DNA of 64,000 nt from Bacteroidales bacterium OttesenSCG-928-B11 (GCA_030267125.1 JAJDJJ010000001.1:78027-142026); one strand, 5' to 3'. Shown: positions 20,936 to 42,118, counted from the first letter of the stretch. Notes: generated by a model from the sequence alone, not told the origin. Made by a program: numbers and translations.

Positions 20936-20991
20936 CCTCGCCTTTGGCAAAATGCCAAAGCATTAGATGGCAGTGTGGAAAACTGATAAAA

Positions 20992-23379
20992 ATGGGATCA
21001 TTGAAAAAATATCCACGTCAATGCCGAATTCGCACCAATAAGCTGTTAATTGTGGGTCTGCAAAAAAATAAAACGATCTTCACCAACCCTCTCTCTTGGA
21101 AAAGAAGCACCCAGGTCATAGTTGTCATTGCGGTAGTTTTGTTGGTGCTCTACGCTTTCTGTTTGCCGAGGCAGCTTTTCAACGTTCCTTATTCCACCGT
21201 GGTGGAGGATAGGGGCGGGGAGTTGTTGGGCGCGCGAATTGCAGAGGATGGACAGTGGCGATTTCCGGTGTGTGACACTGTGCCGGATAAATTTAAGACT
21301 TGTATCATCCACTTTGAAGATCGTTATTTTTACTATCATTGGGGAGTGAATCCACTGGCGATTGGTCGGGCTTTATCACAGAATATCAAAGAGAAAAGAG
21401 TGGTCAGCGGAGGAAGTACGCTTACTATGCAGACCATTCGGTTGGCACGCAATAAGAATCGCACCGTGTGGGAAAAACTGATCGAGGCTGTGTGGGCTAC
21501 GCGGCTGGAGTTCCGCTGTTCCAAGAAAGAGATATTGGCATTGTATGCTTCGCATGCGCCTTTTGGAGGTAATGTGGTGGGATTGGAGGCCGCCGCTTGG
21601 CGCTACTTCGGTCGTTCTGCCGATCAGCTCTCTTGGGCGGAAGCTGCCACGCTGGCTGTGCTCCCCAACGCACCGGCTATGATCCACCTGTCGAAAAACA
21701 GACAACAACTCCTGCGCAAACGCAACCTGTTACTTCATCGTCTCCACGAGCGAGGTGTCATTGATGAGGTTGACTACACGCTGGCGTTAGGGGAGGAATT
21801 ACCCGGCGAGCCGTTGCCCCTTCCGCAAATAGCTCCACATTTGGTGACTTATTTCCACCAACAACACAAAGGGGAGCGTATCACGTCCACTATCGACATA
21901 GGCATGCAGGTGAAAGTGGAACGGTTGCTCGTCCGTTGGAATCGAGACTTTTCCCGTAGTGATATAAACAACATCGCAGCTATGGTGATTGATGTGGATA
22001 ACAATAAAGTGGTTTCTTATTGTGGTAATGTCAATTTTGCGGATGATAAAGCCGCCAATCAAGTTGACATTTTGCGTTCCCCGCGAAGTACGGGAAGCAT
22101 TTGGAAGCCATTGCTTTATTATGCCGCATTACAAGATGGGGAGATATTACCGCACACGTTGCTTGCTGATATACCTGTGAGTCTCAATGGGTTTAATCCG
22201 CAGAATTTTTCGTTGCGTTACGATGGAGCCGTTCCTGCCTCGCAGGTGATCTCCCGTTCGCTCAATATTCCATCGGTGTTGCTGTTGCGGGACTACGGTG
22301 TTGCGAAATTCTACGACTTTCTGAAGCAGGCCGGGTTTACGACTCTTACTAGACCTTCAGCACATTACGGATTGTCACTGATTTTGGGAGGTGCGGAGGC
22401 TATGCCGTGGGAAGTTGCAACCATCTATGCGGAGATGGCGCGTAGCCTGCGAGGACTGGAACCTACGAAATCGCAAATCAATAATCGAGTGAAACCGGAG
22501 GTGGTGGCCAGGGTTTTTAAGCCCGAAGGTGTGTGGCAGGTTTTCGAAGCGATCAAGGAGGTGAACCGGCCGGAAGAGATTGATTGGCGCGACATTCCCT
22601 CGATGCAGACCATTGCCTGGAAAACAGGTACCAGCTATGGATTTCGTGATGCCTGGGCGGTGGGTGTGACACCGAAGTTTGTGGTTGCCGTGTGGGTAGG
22701 CAACGCTTCCGGTGAAGGAAAACCCGGATTGGTGGGTGCCAGAACCGCCGGCCCGGTGATGTTTGACATTTTTAATATGTTGCCAACTTCTCCTTGGTTT
22801 TCAATGCCTGACGGTGATTTTGCCGCCGCGGAAGTCTGCCGGCAATCGGGACATTTGAAAAATCGGTTCTGCGATGAGGTCGACACAGTCTTTATTTGCG
22901 CCAATGGCCTCCGTTCCGAACCTTGTCCGTATCATGTGCCGGTGCACCTCACGATCGATGGACGTAATCGTGTTTACGAACATTGCGCCGGTGAGTTTGG
23001 AGCGGTACAGCGTAGTTGGTTTGTACTGCCACCGGCCTGGGAGTGGTACTATAAGCAACAGCATCCTGGCTACAAGGTTCTTCCGCCTTTTAAAACCGGT
23101 TGTGACGATGGAGCGCAATCGATCATGCAATTTATTTATCCCCAGCATAATGCCCGCATCTCTCTGCCCCGTCAATTAGATGGTTCGCCCGGAAAGGTGA
23201 CTTTCGACTTGGCACACCGCAACAATGCCGCTACCGTTTTTTGGCACATCGATGAAGAGTATGTCACTGCCACCCGCGACTTTCATCAACTAACCGTCGC
23301 GCTTGCCGCCGGCGAGCATTATGTCACTGTGGTGGATGGAGAGGGACGTGTATTGTCGGTACGGATTTTTGTGGAATAA
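20992..23379 (+). CDS. pbpC: penicillin-binding protein 1C (bifunctional transglycosylase/transpeptidase)
   Basis: GT51 motifs EDRYFYYHWGVNP and GGSTLTMQ. Transpeptidase motifs SIWK (SxxK), SLN and KTGTS. C-terminal PbpC-type beta domain. The -7 box at 20928 favours the ATG at 20992. Confidence 0.9.
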   Translation: MGSLKKYPRQCRIRTNKLLIVGLQKNKTIFTNPLSWKRSTQVIVVIAVVLLVLYAFCLPRQLFNVPYSTVVEDRGGELLGARIAEDGQWRFPVCDTVPDKFKTCIIHFEDRYFYYHWGVNPLAIGRALSQNIKEKRVVSGGSTLTMQTIRLARNKNRTVWEKLIEAVWATRLEFRCSKKEILALYASHAPFGGNVVGLEAAAWRYFGRSADQLSWAEAATLAVLPNAPAMIHLSKNRQQLLRKRNLLLHRLHERGVIDEVDYTLALGEELPGEPLPLPQIAPHLVTYFHQQHKGERITSTIDIGMQVKVERLLVRWNRDFSRSDINNIAAMVIDVDNNKVVSYCGNVNFADDKAANQVDILRSPRSTGSIWKPLLYYAALQDGEILPHTLLADIPVSLNGFNPQNFSLRYDGAVPASQVISRSLNIPSVLLLRDYGVAKFYDFLKQAGFTTLTRPSAHYGLSLILGGAEAMPWEVATIYAEMARSLRGLEPTKSQINNRVKPEVVARVFKPEGVWQVFEAIKEVNRPEEIDWRDIPSMQTIAWKTGTSYGFRDAWAVGVTPKFVVAVWVGNASGEGKPGLVGARTAGPVMFDIFNMLPTSPWFSMPDGDFAAAEVCRQSGHLKNRFCDEVDTVFICANGLRSEPCPYHVPVHLTIDGRNRVYEHCAGEFGAVQRSWFVLPPAWEWYYKQQHPGYKVLPPFKTGCDDGAQSIMQFIYPQHNARISLPRQLDGSPGKVTFDLAHRNNAATVFWHIDEEYVTATRDFHQLTVALAAGEHYVTVVDGEGRVLSVRIFVE

Positions 23380-23526: not shown

Positions 23527-24576
23527 ATGATTTCAAAAAACCAAAAGACAAAAGACACAGCAACTTCCGAATTTTTAGAGTGGATAACAACACTCAAAAG
23601 TAAAATTCGCAGTGCAAGGAATAAATTAGCCTTTTCAATTAATTCACAAGTACTTGAATTGTATTGGGAACTTGGAAAAGATATTGCCGAAAAACAACAA
23701 AATTCTAGTTTTGGCAGTAATTTCATTGAACAAGTTGCCGAAGAATTAAAACACGACTTTCCTGAAATAAAAGGTTTTTCCCGCCGAAATCTGTATGCGA
23801 TTTTACAATGGTACAAATTTTATTCCGAGAAATATCAATTTGTGCCACAAGTCGTGGCACAAATTCCGTGGGGACATAATCGACTGATAATTACAAAAAT
23901 AAAGAATATTGAAGAAGCTGAATTTTATTGTCGTGCAACCATTCAAAACGCTTGGGACAGAGATACTTTAGAAATTCAAATTGACAATAAATATTACCTG
24001 ACTTCGGGAAATTCTACGCACAATTTCAACAATACTTTACCCGCAAAACAATCAGAACTTGCCACGCAAACGCTGAAAGACCCTTACAACTTTGATTTTC
24101 TTGGATTGGAAAGCGATGCCTTAGAAAAAGCAATTGAAGACGAACTGATAAAGAATGTTACCGAATTTTTGCTTGAACTTGGCAAAGGGTTTGCCTTTCT
24201 CGGACGACAATATAAAATTGAAATTGGCGAAAACGACCATTTTCTTGATATGCTTTTCTATCACGTAGAATTGCGTTGTTACATTGTGATAGAATTAAAA
24301 GCAGGAAAATTTCTTCCCGAATATGCGGGCAAACTCAATTATTATTTATCGGCTGTTGATAGTCAGTTGCGAAAGAAAGACGATAATCCAACTATCGGAA
24401 TACTTTTGTGCAAGAAAAAGAATAAAATTGATGTGGAATACTCGTTGCGTGACATTCACAAACCAATGGGCATAAGCGAATATATATTAACGGATTCTAT
24501 TCCCGATGAAATTAAACCTCAATTGCCTTCGGTGGAAGAACTTGAGCGAGAATTAGAAAAACGACAATCAGAATAA
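23527..24576 (+). CDS. DUF1016/YhcG-type PDDEXK nuclease-fold protein
   Basis: 349 aa. C-terminal core D-x(n)-IELK (DMLFYHVELRCYIVIELKAGKF) is typical of PD-(D/E)xK. N-terminal helical domain as in the YhcG family. Confidence 0.8.
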   Translation: MISKNQKTKDTATSEFLEWITTLKSKIRSARNKLAFSINSQVLELYWELGKDIAEKQQNSSFGSNFIEQVAEELKHDFPEIKGFSRRNLYAILQWYKFYSEKYQFVPQVVAQIPWGHNRLIITKIKNIEEAEFYCRATIQNAWDRDTLEIQIDNKYYLTSGNSTHNFNNTLPAKQSELATQTLKDPYNFDFLGLESDALEKAIEDELIKNVTEFLLELGKGFAFLGRQYKIEIGENDHFLDMLFYHVELRCYIVIELKAGKFLPEYAGKLNYYLSAVDSQLRKKDDNPTIGILLCKKKNKIDVEYSLRDIHKPMGISEYILTDSIPDEIKPQLPSVEELERELEKRQSE

Positions 24577-24733: not shown

Positions 24734-25072
24734 ATAGGTGCTGATGGTTCGCAATGTGTTTTAATAGTTTGTCGTGATAGAAGAAACGAATTGATACGCT
24801 CCTACGACCAGAAATGCTCTGGCGACTTGGATATTGGTATTGTTTGCGACCATATAATGCTTTGTGCGCGAGAATTAGGAATTGGAAGCGTAATGGTTGG
24901 ATTATTTGACCCTAAAATTATTAGAAGAGAATTTTTTATACCAAACCACATAGAACCCACGGCATTGATAATGTTAGGTAATCCGATAAATGGTTTTTTA
25001 GACGCTGAACGACACCATACAGAACGGAAAAAACTTGAAGAAACGGTTGTGTATGAAATGTACAATGAATAA
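24734..25072 (+). pseudogene. 5'-truncated nitroreductase-family gene remnant
   Basis: The frame is open only from 24734, with no ATG. It encodes just the C-terminal roughly 110 aa (VLIVCRDRR...DIGIVCDHIMLCARELGIGSVMVG...) and lacks the N-terminal FMN-binding region. Confidence 0.6.
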
Positions 25073-25435
25073 TGCCAGCAGCCGGATGTAATGGACGTTT
25101 TTAATGGTTTTTCAGATCAGCTATGCATCAATTAGCAGAGTTTTTGTACGATTATTATTACACTACTTTATAGTGAAGTGTTATCGGATAAATCATGCCA
25201 AGTGGGATTTTGATTTACAAAAATAATATCTCAAAAAAATTAAATCAAATAAATATAAAACAGAAAGAAAAAAACGAGCTGTTTTGTTGAAAATCACGAC
25301 TCGAATCCCGGCCAAAAATAGCAGTGAAAAACCCCTTGAATAAAGAAAAAAATCTCTATTCATCTTCTTGATTATGAGGGAGAAAAATAATTATTCAAAA
25401 ATGTTTTCCGGGTATTTTTTATATGAAATTTGTTG

Positions 25436-25443
25436 TACTTTTG
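25436..25443 (+). promoter_or_regulatory. -7 box upstream of the receiver gene and hyd locus
   Basis: TACTTTTG, about 100 nt before the ATG at 25544. Confidence 0.45.
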
Positions 25444-25543
25444 CATCGCTTGAAAGATTTTTGGAGCGAGGAAACAAGAAGATTTCGGGTGTAAATTAAT
25501 AGGAGCAGGAAGCATTTAATTAGAACAACCAATACAGAGCGTT

Positions 25544-26041
25544 ATGGAAAGCAAAAAAATTTTAATTGTTGATGATGATATTGACGTGATCACCATCATC
25601 GAAACCATTCTATCCCAAAAGGGATACAATGTTATTTCGGCTACAAACAAAGTGGAGGGCATGCGGAAGATTCGCAATGAAAAGCCAGACTTGGCCATTT
25701 TGGATGTGATGATGACGACACATTATGAGGGATTTGAATTAGCCAAAGAGCTTACCGATGATCCCGAGCTGAGAAAGCTGCCCATTTTGATGCAAACTTC
25801 TATAGATATTCTAACCACTACCAAGCCGGATGTGCAATCCATGGCTCGGGAATTTCGCAAGAATCCGGGTTTCAAAGAGTTGCATGTGATTTTGGTCAAA
25901 GATATCAATTCCGGGAAAGCCGGTGTTGACTATTTGAGCGAAAACGGCGAATCGATTTGGTTCCCTGTGGACGGTTTCGTGAGAAAGCCGGTGGATGGTA
26001 AAAAAGTCTTGACAGAAATAGATAGAATATTGGGTGAATAG
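25544..26041 (+). CDS. stand-alone response-regulator receiver protein (no output domain)
   Basis: DDD (10-12), phospho-acceptor D54 (AILDVMM), T85/S86, K148-P149. About 40 extra residues lie between the conserved T/S and the conserved K. Confidence 0.85.
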   Translation: MESKKILIVDDDIDVITIIETILSQKGYNVISATNKVEGMRKIRNEKPDLAILDVMMTTHYEGFELAKELTDDPELRKLPILMQTSIDILTTTKPDVQSMAREFRKNPGFKELHVILVKDINSGKAGVDYLSENGESIWFPVDGFVRKPVDGKKVLTEIDRILGE

Positions 26042-26189
26042 AAGCGAGATTTGACATTTTTTTATTGCAATTTTTTTTATTGAAGATATCTTTCTTCAAT
26101 GCAGGAGCTTTTGCAATATCGGTGCATAAGCCAAATTAAAGAATCAGAGTTATAAACCTAAAATAAATTTAAGTAACCAAAAATTTATT

Positions 26190-26651
26190 ATGAAAAAATC
26201 GATTGATAACATCTTAGAGAAGTACGAAAACAGCGGAAGGGATGCCCTTATCGCGTTACTCCAAGAAATTCAGGACAACGAGGGCTTTCTGTCAGAAGAG
26301 GCTATTGTTAAGACTGGGAAAAAACTAAACATTCCCACGAGTAAGATTTACGGCGTGGCGACATTTTACAATCAATTCCGGTTCGACCCCCAAGGAAGAT
26401 ATCACATTCAGGTATGTCGGGGAACAGCTTGCCATGTGTTAGGCTCGCTCACCGTGTTGCAAGAACTGGAAAAAACCCTTAAAGCTAAGGCCGGACAAAC
26501 TACTCGCGACGGTATGTTCAGTATCGAGGTGGTAGCCTGTATCGGGGCTTGCGGTCTCGCACCCGTGATCAGTGTCAACGGAACCTTCCATGCCAATATG
26601 ACCGCTGAAAGTATTAATGAATTAGTTGAAACCTATAGAAATAAAGAATAA
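26190..26651 (+). CDS. hydC: [FeFe]-hydrogenase NuoE-like [2Fe-2S] subunit
   Basis: 153 aa. Cys pattern VCRGTACHV ... VACIGACGLAPV (C-x4-C...C-x3-C) of the NuoE/HndA family. Confidence 0.9.
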   Translation: MKKSIDNILEKYENSGRDALIALLQEIQDNEGFLSEEAIVKTGKKLNIPTSKIYGVATFYNQFRFDPQGRYHIQVCRGTACHVLGSLTVLQELEKTLKAKAGQTTRDGMFSIEVVACIGACGLAPVISVNGTFHANMTAESINELVETYRNKE

Positions 26652-26653
26652 TT

Positions 26654-28597
26654 ATGACCGGGATGAATTCAGAAAAAAGGACACAATTGTTGATGGACCT
26701 TATCAAAGGCCAAAAAATTGAAAACGCTGAAGCCAAAAAAGAGCTGGGCGTAATTAGGCGGGAAATTATTGATACCCCGATCATCTATGTGGGAGCGGGT
26801 ACTTGCGGATTGGGCGCCGGAGCAGGCGAAACGATCACCGCTATCAGACAATATATAGAAAATAACAAAATAGCAGCCGATGTGATGGAGGTGGGTTGTA
26901 TTGGTTTATGTACAGCCGAACCCATCGTTGATGTGCAGCTTCCGGGTAAAAATAGAGTCTCTTTCAAGAAAGTAACGTACGATAAGGTGAACGATGTCTT
27001 GGATGCCGCTTTCGCTAAAAAACCGGAAACCCAAGAAAACCTTGGCCAACTTGATGTGGAAGGTAGCGAGAAATGGGATACCCTGCCCAATTTCAACGAC
27101 CATCCGTTCTTCGCGCGCCAACGCCGGATTGTTCTCAAAAGCTGCGGGTTGATTAATCCCGAAAGCATCGACGAATATATCGCTTTCGGTGGTTACGCTA
27201 CGATGCTGAAAATGATAACTAATCATTCGGACTTCGAAGTTTGCGACCTTATCGAGAAGAGCGGATTGCGCGGCCGTGGCGGCGGTGGTTTCCCCACCGG
27301 AAGGAAGTGGAAGTTTGCGCAAAAAGAACAAAATGATCAAAAATATATTATATGTAACGCCGACGAGGGTGACCCAGGGGCATTCATGGATCGTGCCGTT
27401 ATCGAAGGCGACCCGCACCGTCTCCTCGAAGGTATGGCGATCGGCGCTTATGCAATCGGCGCTTCCGTGGGGTATATTTATATCCGCGCGGAATATCCGT
27501 TGGCTATTAAACGCTTGCAAATTGCTATCAAACAAGCGAAAGAGTATGGCCTGCTGGGTGAAAACATATTTGGAACCGGTTTTAGTTTCGAACTGAAAAT
27601 CAAGATGGGGGCAGGTGCATTCGTTTGCGGAGAAGAGACCGCTTTGATCCACAGTATTGAAGGAAAACGCGGTATGCCGCGCCCTCGCCCGCCATTCCCG
27701 GCAGTGAGCGGATTGTTCGGCAAGCCTACCGTGATTAATAATGTGGAAACTTTTGCCAACGTGGCCGAAATCTTAACCAAAGGTTGGGAGTGGTTCGCAT
27801 CTGTGGGAACTGCAACCAGTAAAGGTACCAAAGTGTTCGCCTTGTCAGGGAAGATTAAAAATACCGGATTGGTTGAGATCCCCATGGGAACTACTATCCG
27901 CCAAATCATATTTGACATTGCCGATGGTATTGCTAACGGTAAAAAATTTAAAGCCGTACAGATAGGTGGGCCGTCAGGAGGTTGCGTTACTGAACAAAAT
28001 CTGGATATTCAAATCGACTACGAAACGCTCTTGACTGTGGGCGCGATGATGGGCTCCGGCGGATTGGTGGTGATGGACGAAGATAACTGTATGGTAGATG
28101 TGGCTAAGTTCTTTATGGACTTCATCCAGCGCGAAAGTTGCGGGAAATGTATCCCCTGCCGCGAAGGAACACGCCGTATGTTGGAAATCCTCGAAAGTAT
28201 CACCACAAAACCGATCCATAACGGACCGAACTCCGCATTGGAAAGAATGAAAGGAGTTATGCAACTGGAAAAATTAGCGACCGTGATCAAAGAAACGTCA
28301 TTGTGCGCTTTGGGGCAGTCAGCTCCGAATCCGGTACTTAGCACCTTGAAATGGTTCAGGAACGAGTACGAAGAACATATTTTCGAAAGAAACTGCCCGA
28401 CCAAGACATGCACGGAATTGAGAAAATTCAAAATTCATGCCGACTTGTGTACCGGTTGTACGCTTTGCGCGAGAAAATGCCCTACCGGTGCGATTATTGG
28501 ATCTAAGAAAGCGCCGCACTTCATCATCGATGACAAATGTATTGGCTGTGGCTCTTGCAAAGAGTCATGTAATTTTAACGCAATTGAAATGATTTAA
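26654..28597 (+). CDS. hydB: [FeFe]-hydrogenase NuoF-like flavoprotein subunit (NAD(P)H/FMN, Fe-S)
   Basis: GLRGRGGGGFPTGRKW FMN/NADH block. ESCGKCIPCREG [4Fe-4S]. N-terminal thioredoxin-like 2Fe-2S domain. C-terminal CTGCTLCARKCP and CIGCGSCKESC. Confidence 0.9.
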   Translation: MTGMNSEKRTQLLMDLIKGQKIENAEAKKELGVIRREIIDTPIIYVGAGTCGLGAGAGETITAIRQYIENNKIAADVMEVGCIGLCTAEPIVDVQLPGKNRVSFKKVTYDKVNDVLDAAFAKKPETQENLGQLDVEGSEKWDTLPNFNDHPFFARQRRIVLKSCGLINPESIDEYIAFGGYATMLKMITNHSDFEVCDLIEKSGLRGRGGGGFPTGRKWKFAQKEQNDQKYIICNADEGDPGAFMDRAVIEGDPHRLLEGMAIGAYAIGASVGYIYIRAEYPLAIKRLQIAIKQAKEYGLLGENIFGTGFSFELKIKMGAGAFVCGEETALIHSIEGKRGMPRPRPPFPAVSGLFGKPTVINNVETFANVAEILTKGWEWFASVGTATSKGTKVFALSGKIKNTGLVEIPMGTTIRQIIFDIADGIANGKKFKAVQIGGPSGGCVTEQNLDIQIDYETLLTVGAMMGSGGLVVMDEDNCMVDVAKFFMDFIQRESCGKCIPCREGTRRMLEILESITTKPIHNGPNSALERMKGVMQLEKLATVIKETSLCALGQSAPNPVLSTLKWFRNEYEEHIFERNCPTKTCTELRKFKIHADLCTGCTLCARKCPTGAIIGSKKAPHFIIDDKCIGCGSCKESCNFNAIEMI

Positions 28598-28610
28598 AAA
28601 AAACAGAGTT

Positions 28611-30338
28611 ATGAGTATGCAAATTGAAGTTAATGGTAATAAAATAGAGGCCTTTGAAGGCGAAACCATATTAAGTGCGTTGAATAGGAACGGAATCAAA
28701 ATACCGACCCTATGCCACATGAAAAAATTTATCCCTTCCGGTGCGTGTCGTATCTGTGTCGTGGAAGTTATAGGAAGTCCTAAGTTAGTTACAGCTTGTT
28801 CTTTCCCCGTTGCCGACGGGATGAAAATTCTCACGCATTCGCTGAAAGTTACTGAAGCGCGTAAGACGATTATCGAACTGTTGCTTTCAAACCATCCCGA
28901 CGATTGTTTGTACTGTTTGCGCAATGGGAACTGCGAATTGCAGAGTCTTTCGAAAGAGTACCACGTGGTGGAAAGAAGAATCCGCGGCAAAAAGAATAGT
29001 TTTAAATTAGACCATTCCGGTCCGAGTATCGTGCGCGACCCCGAGAAATGTATCCTTTGCGGTCGCTGTGTGCGCGTATGCGAAGAGGTGATGGGTGTGG
29101 CTTGTATCGATTACATCAACAGAGGAAGCCAAACATTTATCGGCACAACTTTGAAAAAACCGTTGAATACCTCCAGCTGCATAAATTGCGGACAGTGTAT
29201 CATGGTTTGTCCTACCGGAGCTTTGACCGAGAAAAACAATGTAGCCTTGATGCAAGAAGCTTTGCATCGCAAAGATAAAAAAGTGGTTGTGCAATATGCT
29301 CCCGCTATTACGGTTTCCATTGCTGAGGCATTTGGCTTGGAACCTGGTACGGATTTGAACGGCGTGTTGAATGCCGCTCTCCGGAAAATGGGCTTTAATT
29401 ATGTGTTTGACACTACGTTCAGCGCCGACTTAACCATTATGGAAGAGGCGTCAGAGTTGATTCATCGAGTGGTAAACGGAGGCAAACTGCCGATGTTCAC
29501 CAGCTGTTGCCCGGGGTGGATTAAATATGCGGAGGAGTTTGCGCCGGATATGTTGGCTAATTTGTCCTCTTGTAAATCGCCGCAACAGATGTTGGGCGCG
29601 GTAATCAAGAGTTATTTCGCTGAACAGGTGAATTTGAAACCGGAAGAGATAACCTCCGTGTCCATCATGCCTTGCACTGCGAAGAAATTTGAGGCTGAAC
29701 GCGCAACGATGGGGCGCGACGGTGTCCCCGATGTAGATATCGTGCTGACTACCCGTGAATTGATCGAAATGATCAAGTTGTACGGTATCGATCTGAAAAA
29801 CATCGAACCCGAAATCACAGACTCGCCGCTTGGCGTTAGAAGCTCTGCGGGTAAAATTTTTGGCGCTAGTGGCGGTGTAATGGAAGCGGCGATCAGAACG
29901 GCGTATAAGATGATTACCGGTGAAGAACTCGCCAATTTTAGAGTGTGCGCGGTCAGAGGCTTTGACGGACACAAAGAGGCGAAAATCAAAATCAACGAAA
30001 ACTTGGAGATCGGTGTGGCGGTTGTTAGCGGATTGGCTAATGCGGCTACTTTAATTGAGGAGATCCGTAATGGACGTGACGACATCCACTTCATAGAGGT
30101 GATGACTTGCCCCGGCGGTTGTATTGCGGGCGGTGGACAGATCATCGGCGTGAACGAATCTTTCATTGCTGCGCGTATGAAGTCGCTCTATGACATCGAT
30201 GAAAGAGAAACTATCAAAGTGTCTCATAAAAATCCGGAAGTTATCGAGTTGTATGATAAATATTTGGGTAAGCCGCTTGGACACAAGAGCCACGACTTGC
30301 TTCACACTTCTTACGAAAAAAGAGATGTATTATTGTAA
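28611..30338 (+). CDS. hydA: catalytic [FeFe]-hydrogenase large subunit (group A, multimeric type)
   Basis: All three H-cluster signatures are present: FTSCCPGW (nt 29496-29519), MPCTAKKFE, EVMTCPGGCIAGGGQ. N-terminal 2Fe-2S and three 4Fe-4S motifs. Confidence 0.95.
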   Translation: MSMQIEVNGNKIEAFEGETILSALNRNGIKIPTLCHMKKFIPSGACRICVVEVIGSPKLVTACSFPVADGMKILTHSLKVTEARKTIIELLLSNHPDDCLYCLRNGNCELQSLSKEYHVVERRIRGKKNSFKLDHSGPSIVRDPEKCILCGRCVRVCEEVMGVACIDYINRGSQTFIGTTLKKPLNTSSCINCGQCIMVCPTGALTEKNNVALMQEALHRKDKKVVVQYAPAITVSIAEAFGLEPGTDLNGVLNAALRKMGFNYVFDTTFSADLTIMEEASELIHRVVNGGKLPMFTSCCPGWIKYAEEFAPDMLANLSSCKSPQQMLGAVIKSYFAEQVNLKPEEITSVSIMPCTAKKFEAERATMGRDGVPDVDIVLTTRELIEMIKLYGIDLKNIEPEITDSPLGVRSSAGKIFGASGGVMEAAIRTAYKMITGEELANFRVCAVRGFDGHKEAKIKINENLEIGVAVVSGLANAATLIEEIRNGRDDIHFIEVMTCPGGCIAGGGQIIGVNESFIAARMKSLYDIDERETIKVSHKNPEVIELYDKYLGKPLGHKSHDLLHTSYEKRDVLL

Positions 30339-30341
30339 ACA

Positions 30342-32333
30342 ATGACTTCGATGGCACGCTTAAATAACGAGCTTGTTTTTACTGTCAAAGACAGGTGTAA
30401 GGTTTGTTATACCTGTGTGAGAGGATGCCCTGTCAAGGCCATTAAGATTGTTAATGGCCAGGCAGAGGTGATCTCAAGCCGTTGTATAGGTTGTGGAAAT
30501 TGTACCCGAGTATGCAGTCAAAATGCTAAGAAATTCCTTGATAATACCGAAGATGCCATGGAGCTGCTGGATATGAAAGGAGTCAAAGTAGCATGCCTTG
30601 CACCAAGCTATGTCGCAGAGTTCGTAGATATAGTAGACTACAAGGTGCTGGTCGGGATGATCAAAAAGCTGGGCTTTGATTATGTGACGGAAGTCTCTTT
30701 CGGAGCGGATCTTATTGCCAATGAGTATAATAAGATGTACGAAGATGAAGACTGTCCAGCCTCTATTTCCACCGATTGCCCCGCAATCGTCTATTATGTT
30801 AAACATTATGTTCCGGAGTTGACCAACATGTTGGCTCCCATTGTTTCACCAATGGTTGCTTCTGTGCGTGTTGCAAAAAAGCTCTATGGTGATGGCATCA
30901 AAACGGTGTTTATCGGACCATGCGTGGCAAAAAAAGCGGAGTCTACCGAAGTTGATATTGTACTCACTTTTAAAGAACTGCGTAAGTTATTCAGAGTTAA
31001 TAATATCGCTTTGCATAATAGCACACCTTCGGGGTTTGACGGGCCAGAGGGCAACAAGGCGGCACTATTCCCTGTTACAAGAGGGAAATTGCATGCTGTC
31101 AATAAATTGGATGATATCGGAGAAGATAACATCCTTGTTGCCTCGGGTAAAGGGAACTTTCGAGAAGCGATAAAGGAGTTTGATGCGGGGTTGGATCGTT
31201 CGCAACATTTGGAACTGCTTTGCTGCAACGGTTGCATTATGGGGCCGGGAATGACGCAAGGCGCGCATTATTATGCCAAAGTCTCACACATGAAAGAGTT
31301 TGTATCCAATAAGATCAAAACGATGGATCAAGAGAAATGGCAAAAATATTTCGACCAATTCAAGAATGAAGACTACTCCCAATCATTTTATCCCGCAGAT
31401 CGTCGTATTCCCAATCCGTCTAACGAAGAGATCGAAAATGTGTTGATATCCATGGGGAAGGCCAATCCAAAAGAACACCTCAATTGTGGCGCTTGCGGAT
31501 ATGAAACTTGTATTGACCATGCCATCGCCATTGTGGAAGGTTTGGCGGAAACGGAGATGTGTCTGCCGTTTACTATCGAAAAATTGCACAAATTAGTGGC
31601 GGAATTGAACCTCTCCAATGAAAAATTGGCGTCGACTCAACAATCGCTCCGACAGAGTGAGAAATTAGCGTCAATGGGGCAGCTCTCCGCAGGTATTGCG
31701 CATGAACTGAATAACCCATTGGGAATCATTACTATGTATAGTAATATTTTGTTGGAAGAACTGCCGGAAGGAAATTCACAGCGCAATGATTTGCAGTTGA
31801 TTGTAGAGCAGGCCGAGCGTTGTCGGAAAATCGTTGGCGGTTTGTTGAACTTTGCGCGCAAGAATCAGGTTCATTACCAAGAGACCGATATTGATGCTTT
31901 CGTTCTGCGAAGTATCGAGTCGGTGATTGTGCCGGACTTGGTTAACGTGGAATTGCAATCTAACTTGACAGATAAGTTGGTGGAGATCGATACGGATCAG
32001 TTTATGCAGGTTCTTACTAATATTGAAAAAAATGCCATTGAAGCTATACCGGAAACGGGCGGAACTCTATCTATCACCATTAATGGGGATGAAAAAGAGG
32101 TGGAATTCCTTATTTCGGATACCGGCGCGGGAATTTCGGAAGAGAATATGGATAAGATATTCACACCGTTTTTCACGACTAAGCCAGTGGGACAAGGCAC
32201 GGGATTAGGACTGCCGCTCATCTATGGAATAGTGAAAATGCACAAGGGACAAATTCAGGTCACTTCAAATAATAATCCTGAAAAAGGTCCGACAGGAACA
32301 ACATTTAAAATTAAAATACCAAGAAGAAAATAA
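30342..32333 (+). CDS. hydrogenase-like (H-domain) sensor fused to a histidine kinase
   Basis: Two ferredoxin 4Fe-4S motifs. Degenerate H-cluster motifs STDCP / GPCVAKKAE / LLCCNGCIMGPGM. CGACGYETC Fe-S motif. H-box AHELNNP (His454). N-box NIEKNAIEA, DTGAGI, GTGLGL. Confidence 0.85.
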   Translation: MTSMARLNNELVFTVKDRCKVCYTCVRGCPVKAIKIVNGQAEVISSRCIGCGNCTRVCSQNAKKFLDNTEDAMELLDMKGVKVACLAPSYVAEFVDIVDYKVLVGMIKKLGFDYVTEVSFGADLIANEYNKMYEDEDCPASISTDCPAIVYYVKHYVPELTNMLAPIVSPMVASVRVAKKLYGDGIKTVFIGPCVAKKAESTEVDIVLTFKELRKLFRVNNIALHNSTPSGFDGPEGNKAALFPVTRGKLHAVNKLDDIGEDNILVASGKGNFREAIKEFDAGLDRSQHLELLCCNGCIMGPGMTQGAHYYAKVSHMKEFVSNKIKTMDQEKWQKYFDQFKNEDYSQSFYPADRRIPNPSNEEIENVLISMGKANPKEHLNCGACGYETCIDHAIAIVEGLAETEMCLPFTIEKLHKLVAELNLSNEKLASTQQSLRQSEKLASMGQLSAGIAHELNNPLGIITMYSNILLEELPEGNSQRNDLQLIVEQAERCRKIVGGLLNFARKNQVHYQETDIDAFVLRSIESVIVPDLVNVELQSNLTDKLVEIDTDQFMQVLTNIEKNAIEAIPETGGTLSITINGDEKEVEFLISDTGAGISEENMDKIFTPFFTTKPVGQGTGLGLPLIYGIVKMHKGQIQVTSNNNPEKGPTGTTFKIKIPRRK

Positions 32334-32343
32334 GAAAAAAATT

Positions 32344-32751
32344 ATGGAACAATTCAAAAACATGACAGCGCTAATCGCTGACGATGATGTGGATATGACC
32401 ACACAATTGTCACTTCAACTTCAAAAAATGGGTTTCAAAGTATTGATTGCCGAATCGCAAAAAGAGACGGAAGAGATTATGGAAGCCACCAAACCGGACA
32501 TCGCCATCTTTGATTTGATGATGGACAATAAGGACAGCGGGTTTATCCTCAGTTATAAAATGAAGAAGAAATATCCCGATGTGCCGGTGATTATCCTTTC
32601 TGCTGTTACTTCCGATACCGGGATGATGTTTGGTGTGAATACCGATGAGGAAAAGGCTTGGATTAAAGCCGATTGCTATTTGGAAAAAGGCTTGCGAACC
32701 GAACAGCTCGAAAAGGAAATATTCCAATTGTTAAACAAAGAACATAATTAG
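32344..32751 (+). CDS. stand-alone response-regulator receiver protein
   Basis: DDD (13-15), D57 (AIFDLMM), S86, K115. 135 aa with no output domain. Confidence 0.85.
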   Translation: MEQFKNMTALIADDDVDMTTQLSLQLQKMGFKVLIAESQKETEEIMEATKPDIAIFDLMMDNKDSGFILSYKMKKKYPDVPVIILSAVTSDTGMMFGVNTDEEKAWIKADCYLEKGLRTEQLEKEIFQLLNKEHN

Positions 32752-32753
32752 TC

Positions 32754-33896
32754 ATGGCTACGTTGAATGTACTCATCGTTGACGATGAACCGGGCATTAG
32801 ATCGGGAATCACCCGTATTTTACGAGATTTTTCCGTTGATTTTCCGTTCTTGAATGAAGAGTTCGACTTCAATCTCATTGAGGTTGAAACGGGTGAATCG
32901 GCGGTCGAGCATCTGGATGCGGGAGAGGTAGATATTGTCCTGCTGGATAACAAACTGCCCGGAATTGACGGCATAGAAGTGTTGGAGTACATTAACGACA
33001 AAGAATTTGACTGTAGTGTAATGATGATTACGTCGTACGCGTCGTTGGATCTGGCGATCAAAGCTACGAACAACGGCGCGTATAATTTTGTGCCCAAGCC
33101 GTTCACTCCGACAGAGCTAAAAACTTCCATGGAAGGGATTACCAAGAATCTTTACCTGAGAAGGATGACCAAGAAGATGAACACGGAGGGCAAACAGATT
33201 CGTTTCCAATTCCTCTCCGTCCTCTCCCATGAGCTCAAATCTCCGCTTAATGCCATTGAGGGTTATCTCAATATTATTAAGGAGAGACAGTTGGGTGATA
33301 ATGTCACAGATTATGAGATGATGATCGATCGATCGTTGGAACGAATTAAAGGGATGCGCTCTCTCATTATGGATATGCTCGACCTTACCCGTCTTGAATC
33401 CAGTGCCAAAAAACGCGATGTGCAGAAAGTGGATTTAGTTGAAATCATGCGCCTCTCCAAGGATACGATGAGTCCATTAGCTATCCAGAAAAATATCAAA
33501 ATTAATATAGACGTACAACCTGACCATATCTTTTATATGGCCGATCGCCAAGAGATTGAAATTATATTTAATAACCTTGTGTCTAACGCTGTTAAGTATA
33601 ATAAAGACAACGGTGAGGTCAGCTGTGTGCTTCGCGAAGAGGGAGATCGCATCCGCATCTCTGTCAGTGATACCGGCATCGGTATCTCCGAAGAAGATAT
33701 ACCCAAACTCTTCCAGGATTTTGTCCGAATCAAGAACGAAAAAACCAAAACCATCAGCGGTAGCGGATTGGGTCTTTCAATCATGAAGAAAATCGCAGAA
33801 GAGGTTTACCACGGGACAGTTTCCGTTGAAAGTCAGCCGGATATGGGGTCGACCTTTACCGTGACCTTGCCGCGAACACCAACGATGGGGCGATAG
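32754..33896 (+). CDS. hybrid receiver-histidine kinase (REC-HisKA-HATPase_c)
   Basis: N-terminal REC (LIVDDEPG...IVLLDNKLPGIDG). H-box LSHELKSPLNAI. N-box NLVSNAVKYN, DTGIGI, GSGLGLSI. Confidence 0.85.
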   Translation: MATLNVLIVDDEPGIRSGITRILRDFSVDFPFLNEEFDFNLIEVETGESAVEHLDAGEVDIVLLDNKLPGIDGIEVLEYINDKEFDCSVMMITSYASLDLAIKATNNGAYNFVPKPFTPTELKTSMEGITKNLYLRRMTKKMNTEGKQIRFQFLSVLSHELKSPLNAIEGYLNIIKERQLGDNVTDYEMMIDRSLERIKGMRSLIMDMLDLTRLESSAKKRDVQKVDLVEIMRLSKDTMSPLAIQKNIKINIDVQPDHIFYMADRQEIEIIFNNLVSNAVKYNKDNGEVSCVLREEGDRIRISVSDTGIGISEEDIPKLFQDFVRIKNEKTKTISGSGLGLSIMKKIAEEVYHGTVSVESQPDMGSTFTVTLPRTPTMGR

Positions 33897-33964
33897 GTGA
33901 TGAATTAAATTCCACTTAACAGAGCAATAATGTGCACACTTTTTTGGAATGTTTACCGCATAAG

Positions 33965-33994
33965 AAAAAAGCTCCGATTTTTCGGAGCTTTTTT
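33965..33994. terminator. bidirectional terminator between the hybrid kinase gene (+) and the tRNA-Gly/Leu unit (-)
   Basis: aaaaaa-GCTCCGA-tttt-TCGGAGC-tttttt. Confidence 0.85.
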
Positions 33995-33995
33995 G

Positions 33996-34068
<73 letters not shown>

Positions 34069-34078
34069 CTATTTGTTG

Positions 34079-34163
34079 TACCTCGGGCGGGACTTGAACC
34101 CGCACGAACGCAATGTTCACGGGATTTTAAGTCCCGCGTGTCTACCAATTCCACCACCAAGGC
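34079..34163 (-). tRNA. tRNA-Leu (anticodon TAA), long variable arm
   Basis: The reverse complement is GCCTTGGTGGTGGAATTGGTAGACACGCGGGACTTAAAATCCCG...GCGGGTTCAAGTCCCGCCCGAGGTA. 85 nt. The end coordinates may be off by 1 nt. Confidence 0.85.
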
Positions 34164-34313: not shown

Positions 34314-37300
34314 ATGAAACGATTAACTGTGTTTGCATTGCTATGCTTTCCGATATTTCTTTTTTCACAACAATCGGCAAAGGAGATGAAAACGGTTCTA
34401 TTGCATATTCAAGAACTGAAAATAACAACGGATGATTATTTTGATTCCACATATCATATTTTAAACCAGCAGATCGAGAATAATGAGGGTGTTGCGATGG
34501 CATTGTGGGAGAGTATGTTGGGAAAATTTTTGTTTGAATACTATAATGTTAACCGTTATCAAATTGGGCAACGTACTTCGATTGTAGGGGAGCTGCCGGA
34601 AGATTTTAAAACATGGGACGAAGAAACATTGAAATCACAGATACACAGTTGTTTTGAAAAATCATTGGCGGAAAAAGAGGGGCTAAAAAATACACCCGTG
34701 CTAAATTACGACTCGCTTTTCATTGCCATTTCTAATCCCGATAATGCAAATTTGTATGACTATGTGATGGGGTGTTATATTGACATTTGTGGAGATATCA
34801 TTTCCGTAGGATCTACTGTTCCGGAGATTAGTTTCCGTAAAATACTTATTCCCAATACGGAGTTTGTCAACTTCAATTATCCGGCAATCATTGGAGATGT
34901 GGACATGTTAAAACTGTTGGAATTATATCAGGAATATACCCAATATTGCATGAAACAGAGTAAAGGACGAGTTGTGAAAACAACATTGAAGCGTCTTAGC
35001 ATTGTTAAAAGAATCTCCCATAGTATTTATTTCGACGAATACATGGAGGCGGTATTGGCATTTGAGAAAGAGCAGCAGGGAAAGGAAGATTATGACAGGT
35101 TATGCTTTGAGATTGGAAATATGTACTATGATATTGCCGAATTTGGTTTTATGACGAAAGAACGTAATGCGGAAAATTGTGCTCTTGCCATCTCATGGAT
35201 GGAAAAAGTCATTGCAAACAGTTCCGATACGACATTAATTAAGACAGCGAAAAATAAGATCGATTTTATAAAAGAAAAAGATATAACGTTAAATATAGAA
35301 TCGTATCACCCTTCCAACCAGCCAATAATAGCCTCTTTAGAATATAAAAATAGTGATACGGCGACAATCCTTATTTATGATCTCCAATCAGAGGGATTTC
35401 CGGAAACTGATAGGCGCAATACCGAAGAGTGGGTGAAAAAGTGTTTGAAGTTTAACTATTTCAAGCAAATACAACTCCCGTTGATCACGCCGCATCAATA
35501 TGTATATCACCAGGCGGATCTCATCTTGCCTGCATTGCCATCGGGTGAATATCTAATCCTAGCGTTAAATGAAAGTGTTGATTCCGTTTTAAATCGGGAA
35601 TATTTCTCAGATATTCTGGATATAAAACAAATTGTTGTTTCGGATTTGCAGCTGCTGTTTCGTGAAAATTCGGAAAATTTGCAATTCTTTGTTACCAATC
35701 GTATTACAGGTAATCCTTTGGCAAAGGCCAATATAGAACTCGCATTTTATGAGGGAGATTCACTCTTCCAAAAAACGAATCTTATCACAGATAAAAACGG
35801 AGAGGCAAAGTGTGATATCCAATCCGTTGGGCGTAAGAATTTTTCATATACTATTTTAGTTACGTACAAAAAAGAGACGTTGCAATACAATAATTATGGC
35901 AATCTGAAAATACGACATTGGGAAAGAAACCGGCAACAACAAAGACCGGATATGGTAACGTATCTGGATCGTGCTATTTACCGCCCGGGTGATACCGTGC
36001 AGTTTAAATCTATTTTATGCAAAACGATGGATAGCGAATGTGTTGTTTTATCGGACTCGAGTATTCAGATATCCTGCCGTACTCCCAACTGGAAAATTCT
36101 CGATTCCATGACGCTTAAATTGAATGATTTCGGTTCTGTTTCAGGCTTTTTTATTATTCCAAAGAATGCGGAAACAGGACAGTACTCCATATCTGCTGAA
36201 AACATGGCTTCCGGTTATAAATATTTTCAAGTGGAGGAGTATAAACGGCCGAAATTTAAAATAGGCATAGATAAATCGACAAATTGTTATGAGATAAATG
36301 AACAAATGGAAATTACCGGAAAAGTAGAGGCTTATTCGGGTTATTCGTTAGAAGATATCCAGGTGAAATATCAAATAACAAGTCGGGTATATTTTCAAAC
36401 CCCATTGGGACGATCAGGATCGGGTGGTTATCCGATACAATTTACATATAAAACGGAAACGGGATTGTTAAAAACGGATCAAGATGGCGCATTTTCAATC
36501 AACCTTTTTCCCAATGATTCCATTTTTCCCGAGTTAGTCAAAGAGATAAGATATGGCATTGTCGTTACGGCAACCGATATTACCGGCGAGACACAAGAAA
36601 CGAGTTCTACGCTCAGGGTTGTCAAAAACAAAATCGAGATCATTCCGGATATCCCTGATGAGGTGGCATTAGATCAGAAATTTAGCTATCCTATCCATAC
36701 AACCGCATGTGATGGAATTCAGCAGCCGATTACGTTGAGTTATACGGTTCACCGATTGGAGGCCCCTTTCCAATATTATCATCGTTTCGACCGTTTGGGG
36801 AACTTGTTGAAGCTGGGGGATACCACGCTTTTTGAAAAATATTTTCCGGATTACGATTTGTATGATTATGGAAATCCTGAAAAGTGGAAAGATGCGGGAA
36901 TTGTGACCTCCGGTACACTAAATGCGGGCATTGATAGCTTGCTTACTATTGCCGGTACGAAAAATTGGAAAGAGGGGCATTACATCGTAAAATTTGAACA
37001 TATCAATGTAAATGGCGATACGATCCGGGCAGAAAAGAGCTTTAGAGGAATAAAGAAGGAAGAAAAATCGTGTCATATTTATGAGGCTTTATGGATTAAA
37101 TCAGAACAAGATCACTTGTTTGCCGATGATGTTTTGGAATTTTCCATTGGCTCCTATTGTAAAAATGCGAAAGTGTTACTGGAGGTTGATAATCAGGGTA
37201 AAGTCGTTTTTTCTGAATGGATTACGCTAAATAAGAGTAAGGAACTTATTAAAATACCAATGCTGGGAATGACGCAAGGCGATATATCCATCCAGGCGAC

Positions 37301-40307: not shown

Positions 40308-41156
40308 TCATAATCCCAGTTTCTTCCGCAACGCTTTGTATCCATTGTCGCTCACTAAAATCTTATCGCCATTCTTCAGTGTGATTTGGCGGGTCTGCTT
40401 ACCGTATTGGGCGATACCGGAGATCGTCTCTACATTGACAATGTAGGAGCGGTGGATTCGTACGAAGAGATTCTGCGGAAGAGCATTCTCGAAATACTTC
40501 ATTGTTTGTTCTTTCAGATAAGTGGCATTGGCAGTGTGGAGCTGTACGTAATCGCCGTCCGCTTTCAGATAGTAAAGTTGCTCTACGGGAATGACAACCA
40601 ACTTGTCGCGAACTTTCACCGCAATTCGTTCCAAAATTTGTTCGGCATCCGTTTCCAAATGCGAATCGGTTTTTTTTGTTGAAATGGCGGGTGGGGTAGG
40701 AGGTTCGTGGCATTCTGTCTGTTCGATCTCGAAGGTGTCAACCAATCTGTTTTTTGTTTGAATGTGAACGATATAACAGATGGTCAACGCAACTCCAATC
40801 CGGATGGGAATGGTTGCCGCAATGGTAGCGATGAATGTCTTGCCCATGAAGATGAATGCAAGCAGCAGAGAGATGCCGGGATAGCAGCATAAAACGAAAA
40901 ATAATCCCAATAAAAATATTCGAACTGTTCTCCAGTTGTATGAGATGATTAATGGATTTTGATTTCCCCTGATCATCAAGATCAGATGTAACAAGATGAT
41001 GTTTAAGGACGAGATAAATGCATCAATGATTTTGTGAGATACGGACGCATTGTATAATGGCGTGATTAGCAGATAAAAAAGAACAGCGAAAAGTAGTAGC
41101 AGTAACGCTTTCCGCATGATCTTGATTTTATGGACTAATGATAGGTTTTCAAACAT
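40308..41156 (-). CDS. membrane-anchored LytTR-family DNA-binding protein (no receiver domain)
   Basis: N-terminal region with about 5 TM segments. C-terminal LytTR domain (IPVEQLYYLKADGDYVQLHT...VRIHRSYIVNV). Confidence 0.85.
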   Translation of the reverse strand: MFENLSLVHKIKIMRKALLLLLFAVLFYLLITPLYNASVSHKIIDAFISSLNIILLHLILMIRGNQNPLIISYNWRTVRIFLLGLFFVLCCYPGISLLLAFIFMGKTFIATIAATIPIRIGVALTICYIVHIQTKNRLVDTFEIEQTECHEPPTPPAISTKKTDSHLETDAEQILERIAVKVRDKLVVIPVEQLYYLKADGDYVQLHTANATYLKEQTMKYFENALPQNLFVRIHRSYIVNVETISGIAQYGKQTRQITLKNGDKILVSDNGYKALRKKLGL

Positions 41157-41923: not shown

Positions 41924-41947
41924 CTTGAAAGGTTTTAAATTTTTCGG

Positions 41948-41955
41948 CAAAAATA
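41948..41955 (-). promoter_or_regulatory. -7 box upstream of the LiaF-like/LytTR pair
   Basis: Minus strand reads TATTTTTG, 25 nt before the ATG at 41923. Confidence 0.45.
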
Positions 41956-42118
41956 GAGACTGTCTTGCTGCAATCCAAACAAAAAACGATGAAAACGGAA
42001 ATTTTCCCGATGAACGGAACAATTTTTTTTCCTAATTTAGCCACCTAAAAAATAGTATTTGTTGCTTGGGGTTGATAAATACCGGAATTGATAAAAAAAT
42101 ATTGCGAAAACACTTTAT

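Follow-up and report, generated by a model that had tools for sequence, protein, structure and literature searches.

A putative hydrogenase-like sensor kinase belongs to a conserved signalling module without an output domain in the hydCBA operon of a Bacteroidales bacterium

The stretch of DNA analysed here, 64,000 nucleotides (nt) from Bacteroidales bacterium OttesenSCG-928-B11 (GCA_030267125.1, JAJDJJ010000001.1:78027-142026; hereafter the window), carries on its plus strand a locus in which the [FeFe] hydrogenase genes hydC, hydB and hydA lie among genes for two-component signalling proteins. The gene order is REC1 (25544-26041, 165 residues), hydC (26190-26651), hydB (26654-28597), hydA (28611-30338), hydS-HK (gene 5, 30342-32333, 663 residues), REC2 (32344-32751, 135 residues) and REC-HK (gene 7, 32754-33896, 380 residues), REC denoting a receiver domain and HK a histidine kinase. 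From hydC to REC-HK the intergenic gaps measure 2, 13, 3, 10 and 2 nt (the NCBI start of hydS-HK lies three codons later, which gives a protein of 660 residues and a hydA-hydS-HK gap of 12 nt), and a bidirectional intrinsic terminator follows at 33965-33994. Based on the gaps of 2-13 nt and the closing terminator the locus is a single operon. The terminator hairpin, AAAAAAGCUCCGA-UUUU-UCGGAGCUUUUUU, has A and T tracts on either side, and the region containing it (33897-34030) folds with -36.7 kcal/mol (z = -4.5); a consensus terminator scan did not report it, probably because the A and T tracts pair. The genes for tRNA-Gly(gcc) and tRNA-Leu(taa) on the minus strand (33995-34163) are convergent, begin directly past the terminator and share it. 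The proteins of the locus were scanned against the Pfam and NCBIfam profiles with a reporting threshold of E ≤ 0.01, which yielded three receiver domains and two kinase cores, while none of the seven proteins matched a helix-turn-helix (HTH), LytTR, GGDEF, CheB/CheR or Hpt family or any further effector family. The seven open reading frames (ORFs), their spacing, the terminator, the domain count and the lack of an effector domain had all been proposed in an initial annotation and are borne out by the ORF calls, the fold and the scans, which also revealed no cryptic DNA-binding or enzymatic domain in the seven proteins.

The seven proteins were mapped onto the 80 best-scoring related loci. These stem mostly from metagenome bins and were subjected to simple ORF calling; the fractions given throughout describe this sample and not the whole family, and the denominators are the loci with enough flanking sequence. 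The hydA gene lies directly upstream of hydS-HK in 71 of 74 loci, REC2 is adjacent to hydS-HK in 70 of 73, REC-HK is found within 1.2 kb downstream of hydS-HK in 73 of 73, and the full set hydC-hydB-hydA-hydS-HK-REC2-REC-HK is present in 58 of 60. The six-gene arrangement thus recurs in dozens of other genomes, far beyond chance. REC2 precedes hydS-HK in six loci and is not adjacent to it in three, but hydS-HK and REC-HK are never separated; even in L062, L065 and L074, where REC2 is dispensable or has moved, the two kinase genes are still neighbours. Homologues of HydS-HK with the same length and architecture form more than 7,500 protein clusters, and the fusion occurs in at least 559 species-representative genomes. 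About ten phylum-level labels appear in the record titles, namely Bacteroidota, Planctomycetota, Hydrogenedentota, Sumerlaeota, Eisenbacteria, Neomarinimicrobiota, Myxococcota, Acidobacteriota, Bdellovibrionales and 'Deltaproteobacteria'. ORF clustering of the 80 loci followed by profile scans identified TM1266-like small proteins, RibF and Rex as recurrent neighbours, together with a divergent PAS-type HydS that is accompanied by a SpoIIE/PP2C phosphatase and a small [2Fe-2S] protein. Moreover, many loci have maturase-like genes next to the module, identified as hydG, hydF and hydE from their size and sequence only.

These data change the picture of a seven-gene unit with a four-protein phosphorelay from which we started. 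The signalling genes do co-occur with hydABC and the six-gene core is conserved, but REC1 is not part of it, being present in only 13 of 59 loci, and in relatives REC1 is linked to a NarL-type system (see below), i.e. the conserved core comprises three signalling proteins instead of four. In addition, none of the seven proteins contains a match to an Hpt domain and the step from receiver to kinase is predicted to be allosteric, as in LvrB, so that the system is more aptly called a kinase cascade than a phosphorelay, taken strictly.

HydCBA has the composition of an NADH-dependent enzyme. HydC is a NuoE-like [2Fe-2S] subunit (2Fe-2S_thioredx, PF01257, 169 bits; NCBIfam NuoE models, 150-151 bits, over their cut-offs). 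HydB is NuoF-like and corresponds to the subunit that binds flavin mononucleotide and NADH (Complex1_51K, NADH_4Fe-4S and Fer4, the C-terminus harbouring 2x[4Fe-4S]); its score of 484.5 bits with the nuoF_fam model is under the equivalog cut-off of 558.65. HydA, the catalytic subunit, is composed of Fer2_4, NADH-G_4Fe-4S_3, Fer4, Fe_hyd_lg_C and Fe_hyd_SSU domains and is of the group A3 type, termed 'A6' by NCBI: it reaches 807.9 bits against a cut-off of 765 with NF040763 (FeFe_hydrog_A6), named 'NADH-dependent [FeFe] hydrogenase, group A6' in NCBIfam. With HydA, a NuoE-like HydC and a NuoF-like HydB the locus matches the gene set of the electron-bifurcating HydABC enzymes (group A3), and electron bifurcation is predicted for HydCBA. 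In four loci (L069, L070, L071 and L080, from Planctomycetota, Myxococcota and Acidobacteriota), which also have REC2 before hydS-HK, a protein of about 1,085 residues, presumably HydB fused to an extra domain, occupies the HydB position.

The product of gene 5 had been described as an 'H-domain kinase'. Both the H-domain and the kinase core are present, but the kinship of the N-terminal part to the putative H2 sensor HydS, which defines the input of the cascade, had not been recognised. HydS-HK starts with 2x[4Fe-4S] (Fer4, residues 15-62), followed by the H-domain (Fe_hyd_lg_C, residues 83-302), a Cx2Cx4Cx16C cluster motif (residues 382-407, within a match to FeS, PF04060, at residues 380-409) and a kinase core made up of HisKA (residues 445-508, with His454) and HATPase_c (residues 550-662). 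The last cluster cysteine, C407, is connected by about 45 heptad-like residues to the dimerisation and histidine phosphotransfer (DHp) helix with His454, and HisKA/HATPase are located where HydS has its PAS domain; no PAS match was obtained for HydS-HK in the Pfam and NCBIfam scans. In an alignment to Thermotoga maritima HydA (7p5h) and to 8a6t, C146, C194, C295 and C298 coincide with the four H-cluster cysteines and K197 with the conserved Lys, the equivalent of Lys358. The motifs SDCP, GPCxAKKxE and ELLCCxGCIMGPG are invariant in the alignment of HydS-HK homologues, the Cx2Cx4Cx16C motif is present in 80 of 80 loci, and regular expressions for the second H-cluster motif and, in a loosened form, for the third match in 77 and 72 of the 80 loci, the others being misses of the expression. 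The kinase core is complete as well, with the boxes AHELNNP, NIEKNAIEA, DTGAGI, FTPFFTTK and GTGLGL, the first of which is found as HE[LVI]NNP in 80 of 80 loci. We conclude that gene 5 encodes a HydS-type, putatively sensory [FeFe]-hydrogenase module fused via a predicted helix to a HisKA/HATPase core; the module may bind an H-cluster and react with H2.

Several residues of the catalytic enzymes are replaced in HydS-HK, i.e. Met353 by G192, Met497 by L293 and Cys299 of the proton relay by D145. Asp145 is encoded by the codon at 30774-30776, and the structure of the C299D variant of CpI (6glz) scores slightly above wild-type CpI against HydS-HK. Over the 80 loci the Cys299 position is occupied by Asp in 48, Ser in 15, Thr in 13, Ala in two and Asn in one, and all loci with Asp are labelled Bacteroidota except L015 ('bacterium') and L018 (Thiohalospira). 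When the segment FGADLIANEYNKMYEDED is compared by eye with HydA of the window, Tyr129 falls on what we take to be the position of Glu279 in CpI numbering, and the presumed positions of Glu282 and Arg286 are not kept.

REC2, a Pfam Response_reg protein, carries a conserved insertion, and its active site is preserved in the orthologues (D57 in 64 of 65, T/S86 in 65 of 65, K115 in 63 of 65). REC-HK is composed of a receiver (Response_reg, residues 6-125, with Asp65), HisKA (residues 152-216, with His159) and HATPase_c (residues 264-375), no other domain being detected by Pfam. Its orthologues are 70-85% identical, always about 376-380 residues long and without any added domain; D65 and H159 are found in 63 of 63, and D65, T93, K115 and H159 are each kept in 62-63 of 63. 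The kinase boxes SHELKSP, NLVSNAVKYN, DTGIGI, FQDFVR and GSGLGL are present, and the Pfam matches of both HydS-HK and REC-HK are above cut-off. Both kinases and all three receivers of the locus retain every residue required for phosphorylation chemistry. REC-HK thus has the build of a Rec-controlled histidine kinase of the LvrB type, i.e. receiver, DHp and catalytic and ATP-binding (CA) domains (Rec-DHp-CA) with no other sensor; the linker is helical as judged from the sequence, and activation by the receiver is predicted. The phosphatase motif of HisKA kinases, E/DxxT/N, has Thr or Asn four residues after the phosphorylated His. At this position HydS-HK contains Asn, which suggests a bifunctional kinase/phosphatase, whereas Ala or Ser is found in 61 of 63 REC-HK orthologues, suggesting that REC-HK acts mostly as a kinase.

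In the related loci the lengths and domain architectures of the relay proteins are as in the window and none of the proteins contains an output domain. A hidden Markov model search of receiver-containing ORFs within ±10 kb in the 80 loci gave no output-domain response regulator that is consistently linked to the module; it found a NarL-type regulator and the kinase belonging to it in nine close relatives and sporadic others, and no such linked regulator in the window. Hence, no locus of the sampled family has an effector domain dedicated to the relay.

The operons of most relatives do include a DNA-binding protein, Rex, which senses NADH/NAD+ and represses genes for fermentation and hydrogenases. 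Of the 80 related loci, 45 have rex in the operon: in Planctomycetota, Myxococcota and others it precedes hydC by 0-14 nt, and in a second Bacteroidota group, termed group B here, it comes immediately behind REC-HK. De novo k-mer counting uncovered a tandem operator, ATTGTTAATAAAATAACAATGTTTATTTATTAACAAT, consisting of two Rex-type boxes of the TTGTTAA-N4-TTAACAA type, in 23 of 25 group B loci, mostly 55-95 nt upstream of hydC and far above shuffled sequences. In these loci (L004-L047, L068 and L073), which have rex after REC-HK, the operator is situated in a divergent intergenic region, with the genes for the divergent PAS-type HydS, the PP2C phosphatase and the small [2Fe-2S] protein on its opposite side. 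While this Clostridium-type box surfaced by k-mer counting, an exact search of the loci for the T. maritima-type box, loosened to TGTGA-N8-TCACA, came back nearly empty. Transcription of the operon in relatives therefore appears to be handled by Rex. As a one-component regulator without a receiver, Rex does not constitute a two-component output. The rex gene is never present in loci with REC1, although Rex-like boxes also occur ahead of REC1 in several of them. The window contains no rex gene, and matches to TGTGAA-N6-TTCACA and TTGTTAA-N4-TTAACAA are no more frequent in it than expected by chance, with none upstream of REC1 and hydC (25073-26189). Considering Rex in most relatives, the total lack of a DNA-binding protein is particular to the locus of this lineage.

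REC1 differs from the other relay proteins in both structure and distribution. Pfam Response_reg covers only residues 6-87, as about 40 extra residues separate T85/S86 from K148-P149. This spacing had been noted initially and is a genuine feature, invariant in 14 orthologues, as are D10, D11, D54, T85, S86, K148 and P149. In an AlphaFold2 model (predicted local distance difference test score, pLDDT, 86) REC1 is a normal receiver with a three-stranded β meander (residues 115-142) between α4 and β5, which in the model sits on the α4-β5-α5 face, the usual output face of receivers. Comparison with the PDB returned only ordinary receivers of about 120 residues, RR468 bound to HK853 being among the top matches. 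The insertion alone (25886-25969, VILVKDINSGKAGVDYLSENGESIWFPV), searched against 1.8 billion representatives, weakly resembles single ELWxxDGT repeat units (FLVKDINPGKAGVNIHYL...; P0376, P0388 and P0398); the NCBIfam ELWxxDGT repeat model itself does not match REC1, nor did any NCBIfam model match the insertion on its own. The same search retrieved dual-receiver proteins of 309-315 residues in which a NarL-type receiver without HTH is fused ahead of REC1. Their genes come after that of a complete NarL-type regulator and immediately before hydC (L081, 1671-2600; P0361, P0363, P0365 and P0381).

REC1 homologues are 74-91% identical over more than 100 clusters, as compared to 59-79% for HydS-HK, and all loci with REC1 upstream of hydC are labelled Bacteroidetes, Bacteroidota, Bacteroidales, Lentimicrobiaceae or Draconibacterium. 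With gaps of 25-207 nt between REC1 and hydC, the operon starts with REC1 in these loci. In the window this spacer has 148 nt and contains a perfect inverted repeat of 8 bp, ATTGAAGA-N6-TCTTCAAT (26079-26100), which is not kept in the orthologous spacers. Just upstream of REC1, nine close relatives encode a kinase of the HisKA_3 type together with a DNA-binding regulator of the NarL type; the window lacks this pair, and in its place are the gene for a YhcG/DUF1016 nuclease and a fragment of a nitroreductase gene. REC1 may thus belong to a NarL-type second system or form a bridge to it, and it is a possible rather than an assured member of the H2 relay.

The upstream border of the locus is formed by this nuclease gene (23527-24576) and the nitroreductase fragment of 93 residues (24791-25072). 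Farther out, the locus is flanked by a PBP1C-type gene (20944-23379) and a bacterial α-2-macroglobulin gene (34314-40295), which are usually neighbours. The position of the hyd locus between the two looks like the result of an insertion or rearrangement, consistent with the spread of the module across phyla. Just past the α-2-macroglobulin gene, on the minus strand (40308-42022), a protein of 282 residues with a C-terminal LytTR DNA-binding domain and no detected receiver is encoded beside a LiaF-like membrane protein; it has no evident link to the hyd locus.

Taken together, the operon probably couples the electron-bifurcating HydCBA to a dedicated cytoplasmic kinase cascade with a hydrogenase-like sensor as input. 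If the nature of the signal is left aside, we regard a cascade that is driven by H2 or redox state and dedicated to HydABC as a likely reading of the locus. We propose that H2 reacting at the H-cluster would determine how far the accessory clusters are reduced, among them the C-terminal one adjoining the linker helix, and that their redox state may toggle HydS-HK between a kinase and a phosphatase mode. In the kinase mode HydS-HK would phosphorylate Asp65 in the receiver of REC-HK, the phosphorylated receiver would allosterically activate the kinase core of REC-HK, as described for LvrB, and REC-HK could then phosphorylate REC2 and, in this lineage, perhaps REC1, with an unlinked response regulator as alternative or additional target. 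As single-domain receivers, REC2 and REC1 would act via protein contacts. In this way hydrogenase activity or the fermentative disposal of electrons might be matched to the H2 partial pressure, complementing Rex, which responds to NADH/NAD+.

The order HydS-HK, REC-HK receiver, REC-HK kinase, REC2 (perhaps REC1) is favoured because of family resemblance and the invariant adjacency of the two kinases. The core of HydS-HK is closest to AtoS (180 bits), ZraS (165 bits) and the ZraS structure. AtoS and ZraS serve receivers of the NtrC family, and AtoC, LuxO and NtrC are among the best-scoring families for the receiver of REC-HK. The core of REC-HK, on the other hand, is closest to PnpS, PhoR and WalK in NCBIfam and to VicK and HK853 among structures, while REC1 and REC2 best match DivK/PhoB/RpaB receivers in NCBIfam, which would fit phosphorylation of a PhoB/RR468-like REC2 by a PhoR/VicK/HK853-like kinase. 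Nevertheless, this wiring is a tentative proposal, plausible rather than probable.

A number of points weigh against the scheme as a whole or parts of it. The wiring derives from best-hit resemblance, and the scores of the receiver families are only a few bits apart. Mutual information with average product correction, calculated over 48 operons, gave top scores of 0.33-0.43 that are alike for all four kinase-receiver pairings. As REC2 is not adjacent in three loci, it is not the sole exit of the cascade everywhere. The helical coupling of sensor and kinase in HydS-HK is read from the sequence; an AlphaFold2 model based on an alignment of 12 sequences is poor (pLDDT 62, predicted template modelling score 0.48) and was not used for inference. 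Furthermore, the tandem Rex boxes upstream of hydC in relatives suggest that transcription of the operon falls to Rex. Finally, the role of group C and D enzymes as H2-responsive signal transducers has been called 'putative' in the literature ever since these classes were defined, and a survey of the literature on [FeFe] H2-sensing two-component systems yielded genomic mentions and no experimental study.

The alternative that survives best, possible although not likely, concerns the exit of the cascade. In such a branched design HydS-HK would phosphorylate both REC2 and the receiver of REC-HK, REC2 and REC1 would serve as phosphate sink or buffer, and the output would be an unlinked DNA-binding or anti-sigma regulator that is phosphorylated by REC-HK, just like LvrC by LvrB. 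The absence of a consistently linked output-domain response regulator in the 80 loci is in line with this design, as is the Lvr precedent, where it took profiling to identify the unlinked partner of the Rec-controlled kinase. The pairing of hydS-HK and REC-HK in the three loci in which REC2 is dispensable or has moved points in the same direction, and a REC-HK with Ala or Ser at His+4, for which the HisKA motif predicts weak phosphatase activity, would need another drain for phosphate. However, retention of REC2 in 70 of 73 loci, with both active site and insertion conserved, is more than a sink usually requires, receiver-family resemblance pairs REC2 with REC-HK and not with HydS-HK, and no candidate for the unlinked regulator was found.

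A second alternative, which we consider improbable, concerns the signal. The HydS module might sense the cellular redox state, i.e. electrons derived from ferredoxin or NADH that arrive via the Fe-S clusters, instead of H2, or it might carry no [2Fe] subcluster. The canonical proton-transfer residues are indeed not kept in the comparison by eye, Cys299 is replaced by Asp in Bacteroidota and in other loci mostly by Ser or Thr, with Ala or Asn in three, and the C-terminal cluster could report the redox state directly. Moreover, a survey of Hydrogenedentota had difficulty finding canonical H-cluster motifs in group C1 sequences associated with histidine kinases. On the other hand, the four cluster-ligating cysteines and the equivalent of Lys358 are invariant, maturase-like genes (hydG, hydF and hydE, by size and sequence) adjoin the module in many loci, and T. 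maritima HydS (TmHydS) and TamHydS bind the H-cluster and react with H2; the protic residue (Asp, Ser or Thr) found at the relay position points to retained rather than lost handling of protons.

The preferred kinase cascade could also be imagined without any transcriptional output, phosphorylated REC2 (together with REC1 in this lineage) binding directly to HydABC or Rex. We consider this doubtful, but if true the system would respond to H2 by rapidly braking a bifurcating hydrogenase, or switching its direction, at the post-translational level, and it would be a two-component system whose effector is the metabolic enzyme complex of its own operon. Very unlikely, finally, is a role of HydS-HK as a mainly structural or catalytic fourth hydrogenase subunit ('BfuT' of 'BfuABCT') with the receivers as unrelated neighbours: the literature names a T subunit in BfuABC clusters of sub-types IV and V, and hydS-HK directly follows hydA in nearly all loci (71/74), but its kinase core is complete and conserved, REC2 (70/73) and REC-HK (73/73) are linked to it as tightly as hydA, its sequence features are those of low-activity sensory enzymes, and docking of HydS-HK on HydABC would also be compatible with the kinase cascade.

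Parts of the system have been noted before in genomic studies. HydDB lists [FeFe] group C1 as 'histidine kinase-linked (putative)', a paper on a Petrimonas genome describes a sensory gene linked to a histidine kinase beside hnd and assigns it to C1, and a study of Hydrogenedentota from 2024 reports sensory hydrogenases, named 'BfuT', that contain a His-kinase domain and whose genes lie downstream of bfuA (sub-type V, bfuCBA-T; Hydrogenedentota, Caldithrix and Bacteroidota). The latter study also describes Bacteroidota in which another copy, of the PAS type, is found ahead of hydC, matching the group B loci. Although the published HydDB classes of these apparently equivalent proteins differ (C1 in Petrimonas, C3 for the BfuT proteins with a kinase domain), the HydDB C1/C3 or 'BfuT' proteins and HydS-HK very probably constitute the same protein class. 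The papers on the kinase fusion do not mention a downstream receiver, a Rec-controlled kinase, Rex or a missing output domain, and the term 'response regulator' does not occur in the Hydrogenedentota study. Thus, the fusion and its position beside hydABC are already known, albeit only genomically, and no account of the conserved relay and its missing output domain turned up in our literature searches.

Among characterised proteins, TmHydS (group C) and TamHydS (group D) are most similar to the sensor. They share the N-terminal 2x[4Fe-4S], the H-domain with four Cys, the C-terminal Cx2Cx4Cx16C motif, the loss of Cys299, Met353 and Met497 and the location beside a group A hydrogenase. However, HydS has a PAS domain (group C, M2f) where HydS-HK has a complete HisKA/HATPase core, TmHydS and TamHydS have Ala at the Cys299 position, which is found in only two of the 80 loci here, and the partners of HydS are PP2C phosphatases instead of receivers and a second kinase. 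As the characterised group C and D enzymes end in a PAS domain or in nothing, they offer no biochemical readout. In HydS-HK autophosphorylation under H2 as compared to an inert gas would be a direct assay of sensing, with the partners encoded next door. The carriers include fermenters from gut, sediment and digesters, i.e. habitats where the H2 partial pressure decides on the fermentation products, and H2 metabolism could thus be widely controlled through this module.

The general logic is that of the [NiFe] systems HoxBC-HoxJ-HoxA and HupUV-HupT-HupR (HydDB group 2b), where a hydrogenase of low activity senses H2 and controls a histidine kinase. The resemblance is restricted to logic, since the Pfam and NCBIfam scans gave no NiFe, PAS, sigma-54 activator or HTH families in the locus. 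In the HoxBC and HupUV systems sensor and kinase are separate proteins that communicate via PAS, and phosphate is transferred in one step to a DNA-binding regulator of the NtrC type whose gene belongs to the cluster. In the hyd locus, by contrast, the metal centre is of the [FeFe] type, sensor and kinase are fused, another kinase stands in between and there is no linked receiver that binds DNA.

Kinases that are themselves controlled by a receiver are known from two cascades. In the Che3 system of Rhodospirillum centenum the signal passes from CheA3 via the REC-HK protein CheS3 to CheY3, and only the second kinase phosphorylates the single-domain receiver. It employs a CheA kinase, receives its input from a chemoreceptor and regulates cyst development; in sequence only domains are shared with the hyd relay. 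A closer parallel is LvrB from the Leptospira cascade LvrA-LvrB-LvrC, the prototype of Rec-controlled kinases: LvrA phosphorylates the receiver of LvrB, which activates the kinase core via a helical linker, a coiled coil forms and the catalytic domains are freed, while the downstream partner LvrC is encoded elsewhere in the genome. LvrB and REC-HK have the same Rec-DHp-CA organisation and nearly the same length (382 and 380 residues), with Asp56 and His161 of LvrB corresponding to Asp65 and His159. They are not orthologues, though, as the core of REC-HK is VicK/HK853-like and that of LvrB resembles the core of HydS-HK, and the input of the Lvr system is host-related and not a hydrogenase domain. 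The hyd module would thus add to Lvr a second example of a naturally paired Rec-controlled kinase cascade, and one in which the upstream signal is chemically defined.

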